Assembly: GCF_028641065.1 (NCBI RefSeq)
Contig: NC_073384.1
Location: 65,906,001 to 65,970,000 of the forward strand
Length of the DNA stretch: 64,000 nt
Source: Leucoraja erinacea
Taxonomy: Eukaryota
Reading direction: 5' to 3'
A program made the position numbers and the translations under genes. Positions within the stretch are counted from its first letter, which is position 1; the number at the start of each line of letters is the position of its first letter. The notes beneath the pieces are model-generated. The model did not search any database, was not told the DNA's origin, and saw only the letters and a list, made by a program, of their open reading frames with translations. This document shows positions 3,406-42,047 of this stretch, piece by piece.

Positions 3406-3758
3406 TCTTCAGTTTTGTTTGCTTTTTAATTAAGGTTCTGATCCCGATTGACTTGGCTGGCAATGTGAAAGCCTGCATGTTCGCGTGTACATTCATACCA
3501 ACATCGCATCAACTCTAGTCTCTGTGTTTTTAGCTGTGGATTTAATTTGCACTCCAGAGACTTCAGAATGCACAAATATGAGCTCAGTCACTGGTGCTCT
3601 CCTTCCCTTGTTCGACTGAGGGTACTTCAAGGTTCTGCTCGCTCGAATGGATGCAAAGGATCCCTTCTCACCATTTTAAAGAAGAGCAATAGTTTCCAGA
3701 ATAATAACTATCGATGAATGTCACTGATGCAAAGTACGGCCATCATTACTTACATCAT

Positions 3759-4098
3759 TAAGGCGACAGATAGCACAATAAGGCGACAGATAGCACAATA
3801 AGGCGACAGATAGCACAATGGGCTAAGAGTTCGGCTGGCGACCGGAAGGTAGCCGGTTCAAATCCCGCTTGGAGTGCATACTGTCGTTGTGTCCTTGGGC
3901 AAGACACTTCACCCCACCTTTGCCTGTGTGTAATGGAATGTAATTACGGCGGCAGGCGCGGGCACACCGCGACGCCCTGTGTCTCCCTTTCAAGGGAGAT
4001 GCTAAAAATGCATTTCGTTGTCTCTGTACTGTACACTGACAATGACAATTAAATTGAATCATTTCATTTCATTTCATTTCATTTCATTTCATTTCATT
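3759..4098 (+). mobile_element. tRNA-derived SINE with triplicated 5' end and Rex1-type tail
   Basis: A box TAGCACAATGG, B box GGTTCAAATCC, GTGTCCTTGGGCAAGACACTT block; tail CATTTCGTTGTCTCTGTAC..ATGACAATTAAA then (CATTT)n. Confidence 0.85.
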
Positions 4099-4126
4099 TT
4101 TACTGCCTGTGGGATCAAACCGGTTA

Positions 4127-4217
4127 TAGACACAAAAAGCTGGAGTAACTCAGCGGGTCAGGCAGCATCTCTGGAGAGAGGGAATGGGTGACGTTTCAGG
4201 TCAAGGCCCTTCTTCAG
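4127..4217 (-). mobile_element. PLE pLTR fragment with hammerhead motif (4190-4217)
   Basis: Minus strand CTGAAGAAGGGCCTTGACCTGAAACGTC. Confidence 0.8.
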
Positions 4218-4811
4218 TTTCAAAAGTACTTCAATGTCTGTAAAGAAGCTTTGGACATCAGGAAAGTTGCAACATAAATGCTTCTCTTTCTGCGAATGGC
4301 TCATTTCATCAGGTGCTACAGAATAGTGTGGAACCTTGCTTTGATAATATTCAGTTTCCGGTTGGAGGGGAGAGAGGGGAGGAGGGATGTGGGACGGGGT
4401 GGGGTATAGGGGGTGTTGAAAGAAAAATTGCTGGAGGAAAATTGGGTAAACAAATCTTTGATTTATATTCATTTCAAAAGGACAGAGTTCTTGGGTTGAA
4501 TCCATTTAGTTGTATTGGTGGCTTCTATTCCAGATTTGCTGTGGTGTAGTAATCATGAGAAAATTACATTTTATAGCCTTGGCTATTGGCTATATAAATC
4601 TCTGCTAATTTTTTTGGTAGGCATGTAGCACTAACTCAAAATTAGCTAATCATAGATGTTGTAAAGAAATGCTTTTGTGTCAAGTGCATTCTTCAGTATT
4701 AAGGTTTGATCATGTTAATAACAGACACATGCTCCTATGGTGCATACATTATAAGGTATTATCGATACAAAATCTAGGTCAAAATGTGGTACAAGATTTT
4801 CCTCATCGGGT

Positions 4812-5610
4812 GGCACCTTAAGTGGCAGCATCACCAACAGCCTGTCTCGTCCCTTTCTTCTTTTGTTGTTTTTAGTCTGTTTATTTGTACGTTGTACTGG
4901 ATCTTTAGTTTTGTATTATGTGTGGGGTGGGGAAACATTTTTCATCTCTTTCCTCGACAGCGATGGAACTTTTTCCATATAGTATCTCCGACCCCTCTGC
5001 AGCCTTAACATTGTGGAGCTGGCGGTCCCTTTGTTAGGGATCGACTTCGGGAGCTCCAACTGCAGGAGCTTCAACCACCCCAATCACAGGAGCCTCGATT
5101 GCCCCGTTGATCACCCCAACCACGGGAGAAAAGGAGGAAGAGGGTAAAAGTTATTCGCCTTCCATCACAGGGGGGAATGTGAGTTCGCCGAAAAACAAGA
5201 TGGACGTGCTGCCTGCGCTGGTAGGGACTCGGAGGGATTGCCGTGAATGCAGTGATCTCGGTGTTTGTGGGGACATGAGAACATCCTGGAGTCTGGTGCG
5301 AGTGTGAACAGCTTTCTGACTGTTCGGGTGGACAGGGACTGCAGCGAGAGTGACAGCGGTCGGTACAACTCTGGTCACATCACGATGAAGGAGCGTGTGT
5401 GTGTGTGTGGTCGGACATTGAACTGATGGCTGTGGGTCTCTGCTTATGCAGTGTGCCCTGGCAATTCTCAAACGCCGCTGTGGTGGCTGTTTATGTTGAA
5501 TTTTTATGTAGTTTTGTATCTTGTTGCTTTTTTGGTAAAATGGCTTGTATGGTAAATCAAATTTCACTGTACCTCGGTACATATGACAATAAAGGACCAT
5601 TGAACTATTG
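4812..5610 (+). mobile_element. Internally deleted Rex1/Babar derivative
   Basis: APE-start-like GNVSSPKNKMD..RRDCREC joined to Rex1 tail TTTCACTGTACCTCGGTACATATGACAATAAA. Confidence 0.7.
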
Positions 5611-7384: not shown

Positions 7385-8455
7385 ACTTTTAGTTTAGTTT
7401 AGAGATACAGCGTGGAAACGGGCCCTTCGGCCCACCGAGTCCGCAATAACCAGCGATCCCCACACATTAACACTATCCTACACACTAGGCACAATTTACA
7501 CATACACCAAGCCAATTAACCTACCTACCTGTACGTCTTTGGAGTGTGGGAGGAAACCGAAGATCTCGGAGAAAACCCATACAGACAGTGAAACTCTGTA
7601 CAGACAGTGTAAATTGCTCGCATCTAAGCTTCCCCCCCAGTCTAGTTTCAGTAAAAACACTGAATCAAGCACTTGAAACAACTACATTTTATTTTAACTA
7701 AAGCGTGTCACAGTTCAATTACTGTACCTATCCCACCGCGGGTTCGATCCTCATGTCTGCCTGTTCAAGCCCTCTAGGCCTCGCTCAGACAGAGACACTC
7801 CAGAAGTTCACGCAGTCCCAAGCGCTCTCCCAGAAGATCGATGCTGGACCTCGTGGTAGCGGACTTTTATATGTCCCGGGACCTCGAAGGGCCGAACCAC
7901 ATGGGGGTGGTATCTTAATAACCTAATTACAGATATCGATTAACCCCATACATAACAGACATTTCCCTAACCCAATAATACAACAGTTCATACATTGTAT
8001 AAGAAAGAAAGCTCTCAAAGGAAGCTAACAAGAACAAACATTGAAACATGTGCCCTGAGATTCAAACAGTTTCTCCAAGGCTCAACAGTTCGACCAATCA
8101 CCAATTAACAGGATGACTGTCTTGCAACATTATGTATACTGTTTACAATGCTTTTGCAGCGATCTAATCAAAATGATGCATTTAAGGTTAGTTTGCAAAA
8201 CCCCTATACATGTTATCAATTTAAGAGAAAGTCGGAGAACACCTGGACCCCTTGCCATCTTGCATATCAGTCTGAGCCTAGACTGGCTGGTGCCAATCAA
8301 AGCCTGTAAAGTTTAGCTGACAAGGGTTAAGCAATTCTGACAAGCGCAGGGATCCTCCATTTTATGGTGTCTTTAATTTAGCCAATATTAACAACAGAAC
8401 CCATAGTCGGTATCGAATGCAGGTCACTGGCATTGCACCACTGCGGTCATGCTGC
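7385..8455 (-). mobile_element. V-SINE (HE1-like) split by a solo LTR
   Basis: (CTAAA)n tail and TTTCCTCCCACACTCCAAAGAC V-domain; the SINE resumes at 8394. Confidence 0.85.
7608..8393 (-). mobile_element. Solo LTR (ERV/Gypsy-like), 786 bp
   Basis: TG...CA ends with imperfect TGTWAAT inverted termini; 4-bp TSD ACAG (7604-7607, 8394-8397); minus-strand TATAAAA 7865-7871 and AATAAA 7688-7693 in U3-R-U5 order. Confidence 0.85.
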
Positions 8456-39555: not shown

Positions 39556-39700
39556 TTACTAATTCAGTAATAAGAGTGGAGTCATAAAACTTGATATATT
39601 TCAAATGATAATGATGCATTTCAACTCTGCATTTTTTCAGTATATCAATGTTAGCTATGTCTTAGGTATGATTGATACAAATACATCGATAGATGCTCCT

Positions 39701-39775
39701 AAACAGATCATCAGTGATGTAACCTGGGGTCATTGGGTGTTTCGGGTCTTTCAACATCAGACACCCTCACCCAGG
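39701..39775 (-). ncRNA. Rearranged (non-circularly permuted) hammerhead ribozyme motif
   Basis: GGGUGUC^UGAUGU-UGAAA-GACCC-GAAACACCC ... ACAUCA-CUGAUGA; stems I and III perfect, stem II weak in this copy. Confidence 0.7.
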
Positions 39776-40405
39776 CGACTCAAGCCGTGGTTGATTAGAC
39801 CATGACTTGGGTTCAGGTGGCATTTGCTCCTGCCCATGGACCTCCTCTCCTGATCCAGAGCCATCTCGAGGCCTTCTCCGCTGCCTCGGTGATGTTCTTC
39901 ATGGCCCTTCTCCTCTCCCTTCCGTTGATGCCCAGTGCACTCAAGGCTTTGGAGAGCGACTGCCCTGCAAAACCTCTGCGGCCAACCTCGATGGGCATAC
40001 ACCTCGCCTTCCAGCCCTGCTTACGGCAGTCTATGACCAGCTCTTCATATCTGGTCATCTTCCTCTCGTGGGCCTCCTCCAGACGGTCCTCCCACGACAC
40101 TGTCAGTTCCAACAAGACAATGTTTTGGTGACCTCTGAGACCAGGGGGATATCTGGCCTCAGGGTGGTCGTGGAAATGTGCTGTGGGAACCTCAGCTGTT
40201 TCACCAGGTCTACAGAAAGCTGCCAGTCCTGCGCAGTCGCCAGGATTCCTGACGGATTCCTGGCTGCTGTGGTTCTTGGCAGCTGCACTGCGGCCTTCAC
40301 GAAGGTGATCATCTGGGTGGTGGGGCGGTCTCGTCTACAGCTGCTGATTCCAATGCTGATGGCTTCTGCAATGGGTTTGAGAACATGGTCGCGACGCCAT
40401 GGGTA
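39708..40405 (-). mobile_element. HERO-like non-LTR retrotransposon 3' part (restriction-like endonuclease)
   Basis: WRRDHVL, LRPDI, ELTVSWEDRLEEAHERK, IEVGRRGF, AEKASRWLW motifs; frameshifted. Confidence 0.85.
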
Positions 40406-42047
40406 TGTAATATAATATTTTCTATTGTGTGGCGTTCAGTTGAATATTGGAAATGGCTTTTAAAAATGGTCAGGTTAAAAATAATAATGCGACTTCTGTT
40501 TTCTAATAACTCTTTAACCAAACTTCATGGGATGTGGTCATTAGCTGAAATAATTAACATTATCTTATGAAGTAATCTCAGGCAAATGGGCACACAGTCT
40601 TCTTGAGAATTTGTTTTACTGTTCAAAAGGAACTAGCTAAACTACAAAACCAAGCCTTAAGACAGCCGATAGTGAAAATATAATGAAAATGACAATGGAA
40701 AACGTCAAACATATCAAGCCACGACAAATCACCTTCCTTCAGATCTTCAATCAAACAAAATCAAATTATGTATTCTCACTTCAAAGAATGTACCTTGGAA
40801 GAATATTAGTAATATCATCCTTTGACCTACACAGGGAAGGTACTGATTCATTGCCACAGATCTTCTTTAGGCACTTGTGTAATAGTGATCCTTCATTTCT
40901 TTCTTTGACCTCTAAGAAGTAATGGTGATTGGAATAGTGTACTCAAAGTGATTTGGGAATTAACTTACAAAGTGATGCTTCAGATGGTTACCAACAACTG
41001 ATTTTGTATGAATTAAATTATTCATTCTAGATCCAGTCAAGGACTTTTAGGAGTTTAACTGTCAACAAACAAGGAAAGATCATGACTTGTTGGCACATTT
41101 GCCGTCGATAGCTATTCTGAATATGATTTAGTGCCTGACTATATGGTAATATGATCAACTGCTATATCTTATGCTGCAAAGTGTGCTGTCCTGATCGTTG
41201 CAACCTGCATAACTGGAAGAACAAATTACCTAGTTTGGTTGTAACTGTGTGGTGAGAACTGGCAGGTGGTTAAAAATGTACCACAAATATTCAGTGGCAA
41301 TTCCATACTCTGGAGTTTTAACCTTCTCTTCCAAAGGAGCCACATGGACCTTGATCTGCTCTGGGGTTCTGTTTTAAATATGCGGACGGGCCCAGTGATA
41401 TAATTTGACCTTGAATGCTTTTATAACTGCCGTGTTATTCTAGGATTTCAAGAGTGACAGCCACCGTATGGATTGCACCCCAGTATGGCTCAGCAGTGTT
41501 TACAAATTATTGGGATAAAATGGTTTGCAACCACAAATATTGTCCTGTCTGCTTTGTTGTTTTTATGCAGGTCCAGATTAAAAATGGAGTAAAGTGTTCA
41601 CTAATACATGACAGATATTTCTAAATATTCCAGAATTATTAAATAATCATATTTCGACATATATTTGAATAAATTAAAGGCTCTTAAAGGAAAGTACAAA
41701 AATAAATACTGTTTCTCATAATGGGTTTTCCTCATTTTCTTCTTAGAGCACACAGCTTGAGACAAAAGGAAGTCAATGTATCCAGTAGATAGTTCTTTGT
41801 AGATTCCTCTTGCACATGCCCTGTTCAAAAATCTCCATTTTAAAAATTGGTAGAAAATTTGTAAGTACATTCGATGGCTTTTCCAGGAAACCAACAATTT
41901 TTAACAATCCCTTGGTGTCTGTGATTCTACTTTAGATATCAGATAGAAACAGGACACACAGCTCCATTAATGCAAAGAATTTGAGTTGGGCAGAAGATGT
42001 TGTGATGATACTGAGTGAACACTTTCTGGAGTCCTAAGGTTAAGTTA

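Follow-up and report, generated by a model that had tools for sequence, protein, structure and literature searches.

The DNA analysed here, hereafter the window, is a 64,000-nt stretch of contig NC_073384.1 of Leucoraja erinacea (positions 65,906,001 to 65,970,000). Its minus strand carries a decayed copy of a HERO-like non-LTR retrotransposon (one lacking long terminal repeats) with a restriction-like endonuclease (RLE), which has no 5' untranslated region (UTR) and no upstream repeat. In the 3' UTR of this copy lies an RNA motif with the core nucleotides of a hammerhead ribozyme in an order that is not type I, II or III. The motif had been described in a first-pass annotation as running from 39775 to 39701 on the minus strand, and the sequence reads exactly as given there; it lies 38 nt past the stop codon of the frameshifted endonuclease frame. 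The GUC triplet with the cut at 39760|39759, GAAAC, stem III (GGGUGU/ACACCC), stem I (UGAUGU/ACAUCA), CCUGGG/CCCAGG and CUGAUGA were all found where they had been placed. The whole motif is longer than described, exceeding those coordinates on both sides and spanning 39817-39698 (Table 1). Its blocks follow the order cut site (S), GAAA (G) and CUGAnGA (C), with crossing helices, and no hammerhead in Rfam matched either the window stretch or six of its relatives. Judged by the sequence comparisons given below, this noncircularly permuted hammerhead fold is real and far beyond chance.

Relatives of the element were collected by endonuclease alignment, giving 84 loci (the best 80 of 255 metagenome loci and four from the genome collection). 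Just downstream of the endonuclease, the core pair of GAAA and CTGANGA, separated by 18-30 nt, was present in 58 of the 84 loci, or in 57 of the 71 with at least 140 nt of downstream sequence, compared with 5 of 642 reverse-strand control windows. A covariance model was built from 32 representatives, with a sister of the window copy among the training sequences, and it gave a single match in the 64-kb window (E ~1e-21). Scanning 60 of the 84 loci with this model recovered 11 of the 14 loci missed by the strict search, all on the sense strand (L099, L107 and L114 were not recovered). In total, the motif was found in 68 of 71 divergent relatives with enough downstream sequence, always on the sense strand.

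The fold was scored on a sequence-only alignment of the 32 representatives, which were obtained by clustering 57 loci at 80% and have pairwise identities of 35-80%, and compensatory changes were counted on a tree built from the endonuclease DNA. In the resulting six-helix structure 87.0% of cells were paired, compared with 60.6% after shuffling and 36-40% after sliding, and two-sided changes were seen at 33 of 37 pairs. Pairing reached 98.0% in stem I, 95.5% in stem II, 94.1% in stem III and 89.7% in helix IV, with 79.7% in the P1 hairpin and 76.5% in the P0 helix. The number of tree branches with compensatory double changes, compared with wrong partners, was 21 vs 0.9 for stem I, 13 vs 0.4 for stem II, 13 vs 0.6 for stem III, 9 vs 0.6 for helix IV and 30 vs 2.9 for P0, where all 10 pairs showed two-sided changes. 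Conservation of the stem I pairing had been set beforehand as a test, and stems I and III both covary across the relatives. On these alignments, the six-helix structure is almost certainly correct.

Table 1. Parts of the element copy and of its ribozyme motif in the window, listed 5' to 3' on the minus strand.
Feature	Position	Strand	Remark
5'-truncated HERO-like RLE non-LTR retrotransposon copy	39669..40405	-	~737 nt; extent set by blastn alignment to a natural copy of full length
Frameshifted C-terminal remnant of the single open reading frame (ORF), zinc-knuckle end and RLE (RPD..ELTV..K)	39813..40435	-	two overlapping frames
Stop codon of the ORF remnant	39815-39813	-	frame translation
P0 5' strand	39808..39817	-	pairs with the strand right after A9
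P1 hairpin, abutting P0 and stem II	39783..39807	-	loop usually a 6-nt palindrome, broken in the window copy; extra base at 39782
Stem II strand with G10.1	39777..39781	-	upstream of the cut; true partner of GACCC; GAGUC in the window copy, GGGUC in sisters
Helix IV 5' strand	39770..39775	-	counterpart of the type SGC stem I-II interaction helix
Stem III 5' strand and GUC triplet	39760..39766	-	sequence
Predicted cut	39760/39759	-	placed from the hammerhead consensus; usual 3' end of the element 89 nt downstream
Stem I 5' strand	39754..39759	-	98% paired in the representatives
5-nt linker after the stem I 5' strand	39753-39749	-	sequence
Stem II strand with C11.1, core G12-A13-A14-A15.1 and stem III 3' strand	39735..39748	-	GAA in 32/32 representatives, invariant by selection
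Helix IV 3' strand	39723..39728	-	pairing analysis
Stem I 3' strand and core C3-U4-G5-A6-N7-G8-A9	39708..39720	-	core search in relatives
P0 3' strand, right after A9	39698..39707	-	best register without unpaired base in 29/32 representatives, some with a short P0
Terminal hairpin, its 4-nt loop variable, with a ragged 3' end lacking poly(A)	39669..39696	-	inferred priming site of the reverse transcriptase (RT)

The first-pass annotation had formed stem II with the strand that follows CUGAUGA and had noted how poor the match was, suggesting decay or flanking DNA. The poor match reflects the lack of any real pairing: in none of the 32 representatives do the five bases preceding G12 find a full set of pairs in the strand after A9, which does no better than swapped partners (mean 3.25 vs 3.24). 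The classic arrangement was therefore rejected, being only 53.1% paired, with a slight excess over shuffles (12/500 for pairing and 9/500 for the covariation score) and tree changes of 4 vs 1.2. The expectation that the family consensus has a stem II did hold, with another partner than the one named: in 27 of the 32, all five of these bases are paired with a strand lying ~20-21 nt upstream of the cut (mean 4.81 vs 3.60 when swapped, 0/5000). The partner-swap test was run without L001, L036 and L105, and in it H17 was set by maximising stems I and III, so that the native scores of those two stems are inflated, a bias which the sequence-only alignment avoids. The first pair of stem II was G-C in 25 representatives, G-U in five and another combination in two, giving the three stems, with G10.1-C11.1 beside G12, that define a hammerhead. 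CCUGGG/CCCAGG, which had been taken as an extension of stem III, is a real and covarying helix (CCUGG/CCAGG), but it is more than an extension, corresponding to the helix by which stems I and II interact in type SGC.

The strand after A9 pairs with a far-upstream strand to form P0, and between P0 and G10.1 lies the P1 hairpin. In most families no base is left unpaired where P0, P1, stem II and the A9-G12 side come together, P1 abutting both P0 and G10.1. This suggests a four-way junction in which P0 is stacked on P1, keeping A9 beside G10.1. The HERO motif has, as far as sequence can tell, the cyclic order of SGC, broken open between A9 and G10.1. The A9-G10.1 backbone tolerates an insertion, since type SGC has an extra U at the same position in the available part of its description (PMC10085705). 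A palindrome of 6 nt or more was seen in the P1 region of 15 out of 19 representatives selected for a P0 of 7 bp or longer and a spacer 18-32 nt long, compared with a mean of 3.4 and a maximum of 10 in shuffles, related families among the 19 not being independent. It occurs as UGAUCA, UGGCCA or GACGUC, and as AGUACU in L077, which is outside the selected set; in several families it is missing. The palindrome suggests a kissing-loop dimer signal. The ribozyme of the window copy has decayed, retaining four of five pairs in stem II and eight of ten in P0, and its loop palindrome is broken; in the sister L002 it is complete, with 10 of 10 P0 pairs.

The hammerhead core (C3 U4 G5 A6 N7 G8 A9, G12 A13 A14, the A15.1-U16.1 pair and H17) is present and kept across families. 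In one lineage, L086 and L092/L073 (84% alike and probably a single event), the C3-G8 pair is replaced by U3-A8, so that the strand reads UUGACAA, and L088/L091 have U3-G8. The change from C3-G8 to U3-A8 has been described in natural active hammerheads, in the part of PMC3088659 that was available. H17 is other than G, with G only in 2 of the 32, decayed copies where the automatic call failed. The catalytic bases, the non-G H17 and the C3-G8 covariation are what selection for cleavage predicts, and the fold very probably cuts after the NUH triplet.

That the host of the motif is a HERO-like element, and that the motif sits in its 3' UTR, was borne out by the ORF remnant and by the relatives. 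In the 2.19-Gb genome of the window, candidate places of the family number at least 1463. A sister frame without breaks (482 aa) is 49-83% identical to RT proteins of fish, amphioxus and mussel, and the full-length unit is ~3.65 kb. Loci L149/L150 have an open frame of 1092 aa, a single ORF with RT, zinc knuckle and C-terminal RLE, and the insertion flanks are unrelated among copies, so there is no specific target site; this agrees with the HERO clade of the R2 group, as characterised in the available parts of PMC3636483 and PMC7650587. Pfam matched the RT in homologs, with zf-RVT weak and under its curated cut-off, and gave no match for the window frames themselves. The best solved relatives of homolog P0007 were R2 proteins. 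The nearest named deposits are BAC82598, BAC82599 and AAN12398 (59-66% identity), which are probably HEROFr, HEROTn and Zebulon. Zebulon reportedly shows a 'partial tandem array'. A target-site duplication, CATACC, was considered at the window copy and rejected, as a 6-mer is no longer than the chance repeats (4-8 nt) at other copies and no consistent duplication was found. One copy in the genome of the window is surrounded by an 82-bp direct duplication (L033:6256-6337 and 8344-8425); most copies are without a clear one. No relatives of the element were found in the viral contigs searched, and no RNA data set was listed as containing the window stretch. In some fish families the ORF appears to run into the 5' half of the ribozyme, with a C-terminal PRLGRP..V, and to stop near the cut site (proteins P0035 and P0089). 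A HERO-like endonuclease remnant with the ribozyme, next to another broken RT, also occurs on a 539-kb contig titled Rhodospirillales MAG (L119; also L116-L118), which looks like eukaryotic DNA in a bacterial bin.

In copies of the element that reach the 5' UTR, one essentially invariant junction (ATCAAT|CACTG) leads into a repeat of the copy's own 3' end, and the length of this repeat varies. In the genome of the window, 37 of 40 such insertions, their independence judged by the flanks, carried this upstream repeat (about six of those counted were rearranged or short on the downstream side). The repeat was up to 80 nt long in 16 cases (40-60 nt in 12 of these), never 81-97 nt, and at least 98 nt in 21, and in 17 it was at least 146 nt, able to hold the whole ribozyme. 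The 21 longer repeats run past the cut, at 89 nt, and none of the 37 ends within 8 nt of it. The proposal in the first-pass annotation that copies integrate with the cut site intact was upheld. The 3' ends lie 89 nt past the cut, have no poly(A) and are ragged over ~6 nt (40 anchored ends at -2 to +3 and five further unanchored ones). Among 34 upstream flanks that were compared no two share sequence, giving no sign that host sequence is carried over. In 23 elements with both ends, the upstream repeat shared 25 non-CpG minor alleles with its own 3' end, compared with 5.2 expected (0/20000 permutations); these fall on both sides of the cut and three are private. This test replaced a plain count of differences between the twin ends (226 vs 290), which is confounded by age. 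The second pass over the 3' end stopped within 41-80 nt in 15 of 36 cases and within 400 nt in 33 of 37, whereas first-pass stops over the same sequence were found within 80 nt in none of 56 and within 400 nt in 22 of 56 (60 3' ends chosen by terminal pattern, less four tandem repeats). The head-to-tail junction between 3' end and 5' UTR is also found in divergent families, where the contigs may be collapsed assemblies.

Several other observations concern these tandems and their junction. Two amphioxus proteins of 1065 aa with adjacent locus tags (Bbelb_153490 and Bbelb_153500, in the P0062 cluster) are a hint of full-length tandem copies. In the genome of the window, internally deleted units of ~950 nt, mostly partial tandems, retain both the 5' UTR and the 3' end with its ribozyme (L177, L178, L183, L184, L186 and L025) and are retrozyme-like non-autonomous derivatives; their breakpoints are clustered yet different, falling ~370-400 nt short of the 3' end, a zone in which several upstream repeats also begin. 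In L162:7631-7944 and L181/L187 the 3' side extends 200-270 nt into the next 5' UTR, possibly because priming occurred elsewhere on a continuous template, or through later deletions. The contig of L051 (positions 1-90) starts one base past the predicted cut of the upstream repeat, probably by coincidence. Just past the junction, at the start of the 5' UTR, there is a second conserved structured RNA (L154:3813-3902, L041:115-200, L042, L051, L055, L065, L072, L088 and L091), made of a closing helix and two covarying hairpins with GAA-rich loops, with two-sided changes at 7 of 17 predicted pairs in eight sequences. Lying beside the priming site, it is a candidate RT-binding or translation-start element.

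We favour an explanation, with a probability of roughly 0.6, in which two ribozyme cuts in a tandem transcript yield a unit-length RNA that is closed into a circle and reverse transcribed for slightly more than one lap. The stacking of P0 on P1 would leave A9 next to G10.1, so that a normal active site could form and cut after the NUH triplet. When a partial tandem with a complete upstream ribozyme (a repeat of at least ~146 nt) is transcribed by read-through from host DNA, both sites would be cut. P0 and stems II-IV would then hold the 5'-OH and cyclic-phosphate ends together for ligation by the ribozyme or by a host ligase. Internal priming by the RT of the element would take place at the ATCA/ATCA junction, which lies 89 nt beyond the ligation point; the RT would copy around the ring, tending to stop soon after reaching its own start, which would regenerate the partial tandem. 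A linear template would be destroyed by cleavage between the ORF and the priming site, and insertions neither start nor end at the cut; the circle is the simplest model that fits. The circular template would explain the intact site, the fixed junction, the twin ends, the absence of host carry-over and the excess of second-pass stops. Within this explanation the window copy would be a truncation on the first lap, whose ribozyme decayed afterwards.

A number of points weigh against this explanation. As to the fold, the structure was derived from the same sequences that were used for counting (the slide, swap and tree controls agree with it), and short linkers join helix IV and stem III on both strands, which puts the fit to the hammerhead three-dimensional fold in question. 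As to cleavage, poly(A) reads of a related organism (X24) showed no pile-up of starts at the cut (L154:3723|3724), with a depth of 21-28 on the presumed sense strand, in a check that covered ~6% of the run at low depth (284 records, many on a flanking repeat). The only start cluster near the cut was five molecules on the opposite strand at 3721, and the reads come mostly from truncated copies, because depth over the 5' UTR is 0-3. As to the alleles, 83 of the 108 minor alleles of upstream repeats are not shared, as expected from decay after insertion, which does not constitute proof; three alleles recur solely in upstream repeats, and shared subfamily ancestry can account for part of the sharing. 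Tandem copies in the genome also give junction reads identical to those of circles. The subfamily loop alleles of the upstream repeat differ from those of the downstream end in L177 and L238, and L072 (14-1796 vs 3744-5518) is a head-to-tail tandem whose units, each with an intact ribozyme, are only 70% identical, and which may reflect a template jump, recombination or a chimeric assembly. A single circular template does not account for these three, and they favour template jumping in at least some cases.

Template jumping belongs to an alternative modelled on the 5' ribozyme of R2, in which only the upstream copy cuts and frees a linear RNA from the host transcript, the downstream copy is held off by an alternative fold or a protein, and tandems arise when the RT jumps from the 5' region of the RNA to another 3' end. 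The mismatched ends just described would fit jumps between different RNAs, the family in the genome of the window has a second GACCC that makes an alternative pairing available, and 16 of the 37 upstream repeats end before they would reach the cut at 89 nt. Against it, 21 of the 37 pass the cut with none ending within 8 nt of it, the upstream repeats match their own downstream end, and the junction is essentially invariant. Template jumps are expected, from earlier work on R2, to leave ragged joints. This alternative is unlikely, although it is the most probable of the three considered here.

The intact site in all integrated copies, and the RNA reads that cross it, could also be accounted for by a hammerhead-derived fold that cuts slowly or not at all and serves as an RT-binding or stabilising 3' domain, with tandems being transcribed as uncut linear concatemers and primed internally. 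The broken A9-G10.1 link, which is without tested precedent in the literature searched, would agree with this. Such a domain does not predict the catalytic bases, non-G H17 and C3-G8 covariation expected of selection for cleavage, it would not keep host sequence out of the 34 flanks, and it leaves the far more frequent stops of the second pass unaccounted for; the repeats would moreover shrink in every generation without a means to regrow. We regard it as less probable still than the R2-like route. The position of the cut between the ORF and the priming site would also suit a self-limiting switch, in which cleavage takes the 3' priming tail off most transcripts, damping retrotransposition or separating messenger RNA from template, and viral hammerheads with a controlled balance of cut and uncut genomes are known from the available part of PMC13725137. 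The tandems would then need another cause, for example one copy having inserted immediately in front of another. Targeting of that kind would produce neither an occupancy of 37/40 while most copies lie at unrelated sites, nor the sharing of alleles with the own 3' end, and site-specific insertion of one copy before another was rejected as a source of the tandems on these two grounds. The switch is the least probable of the three, and we consider it quite improbable.

The closest known ribozymes are those of type SGC (HRIMA-1 and variant; Eckert et al. 2023, PMC10085705). According to the available part of that paper, they have the order cut site, GAAA, CUGAnGA, were shown to cleave at rates of 0.004-0.19 per minute, and are known only from metatranscriptomes, with no example from the genome of a known organism; it was assumed that CUGAnGA cannot be parted from the stem I and II strands beside it. 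The first-pass annotation mentioned reports of rearranged hammerheads in animal genomes, but in the literature searched that paper has them from metatranscriptomes. As far as the same text allows comparison, the HERO motif resembles type SGC in its S, G, C block order, full core and short linker between stems I and II, and in having a 5-bp stem II, 1 nt and then the helix that connects stem I with stem II, with a spacing that matches the published alignment. It differs in that the stem II strand does not directly follow CUGAnGA(U), the A9-G10.1 link being replaced by P0 and P1, in that the two ends of the RNA lie within P0, and in that the interaction helix is also linked to stem III, as in type CSG. 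The RNAMotif pattern given there would miss the HERO form. A pistol-like pseudoknot hammerhead (PDB 8YDC), from what is available of PMC11300833, shows that the core tolerates a rewired periphery; in it, A9 still leads into G10.1-C11.1, and the strand order is different from that of the HERO motif.

Among retroelements, the same model of cutting, circularisation and reverse transcription of more than one unit has been proposed for Penelope-like elements, and a similar circular route for retrozymes, in the accessible parts of PMC4209133 and PMC7761336, respectively. These sources and the corresponding part of bioRxiv 10.64898/2026.07.22.740005 describe hammerheads in pseudo-LTRs belonging to Penelope-like elements and in non-LTR retrozymes which, like that of HERO, lie in terminal repeats of head-to-tail tandems, but which are type I or minimal, often need a dimer, and occur in GIY-YIG elements or non-coding repeats. 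HERO, in contrast, has a complete single-unit pseudoknotted form in an autonomous RLE LINE (long interspersed nuclear element) of the R2 group. It is also distinct from non-LTR retrozymes, defined by non-coding tandem repeats of 150-300 bp with a type I hammerhead, as its ~3.65-kb unit encodes its own RT and the ribozyme has another topology. The hepatitis delta virus (HDV)-like ribozymes of R2 and other LINEs likewise free an RLE element from a host co-transcript by self-cleavage; these are of another class, lie at the 5' end and cut once, whereas the HERO motif, lying in the 3' UTR, would make a cut in every repeat (PMC7761336 and PMC13580325, in the parts available). No report of a hammerhead in HERO elements or of a split-core form was found in open-access PMC and bioRxiv, and the available portions of PMC7650587, PMC3636483, PMC13580325, PMC13725137, PMC2684134, PMC11300833 and bioRxiv 10.64898/2026.07.22.740005 report neither. 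Within that literature, the split-core hammerhead topology and its pairing with a HERO retroelement are new.

Taken at its boldest, the joint reading would be that a whole clade of autonomous LINEs, extending from molluscs and amphioxus to vertebrates, replicates through a covalently closed, protein-coding circular RNA of 3.7 kb, made by a hammerhead of novel topology whose core a perfect four-way junction divides between A9 and G10.1, and in which a palindromic kissing loop pairs two ribozymes for strand swap and ligation; we hold this only tentatively and would not bet on all of its parts together.

If true, the finding would add a hammerhead topology beyond the six block orders thought possible, and would place non-circularly permuted ribozymes, so far known from metatranscriptomes, in animal genomes, where thousands of copies would have been missed by current descriptors. 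The self-clamping cut-and-ligate RNA and the circle-priming RT could be useful for RNA and genome engineering. The role of hammerheads in tandem retroelements becomes testable in an autonomous element with a complete single-unit ribozyme. In R2-group LINEs, target-primed reverse transcription is normally taken to begin at a free 3' end; for HERO/Zebulon-type elements, a circular RNA template in an R2-group LINE would provide the reason for their partial-tandem insertion.
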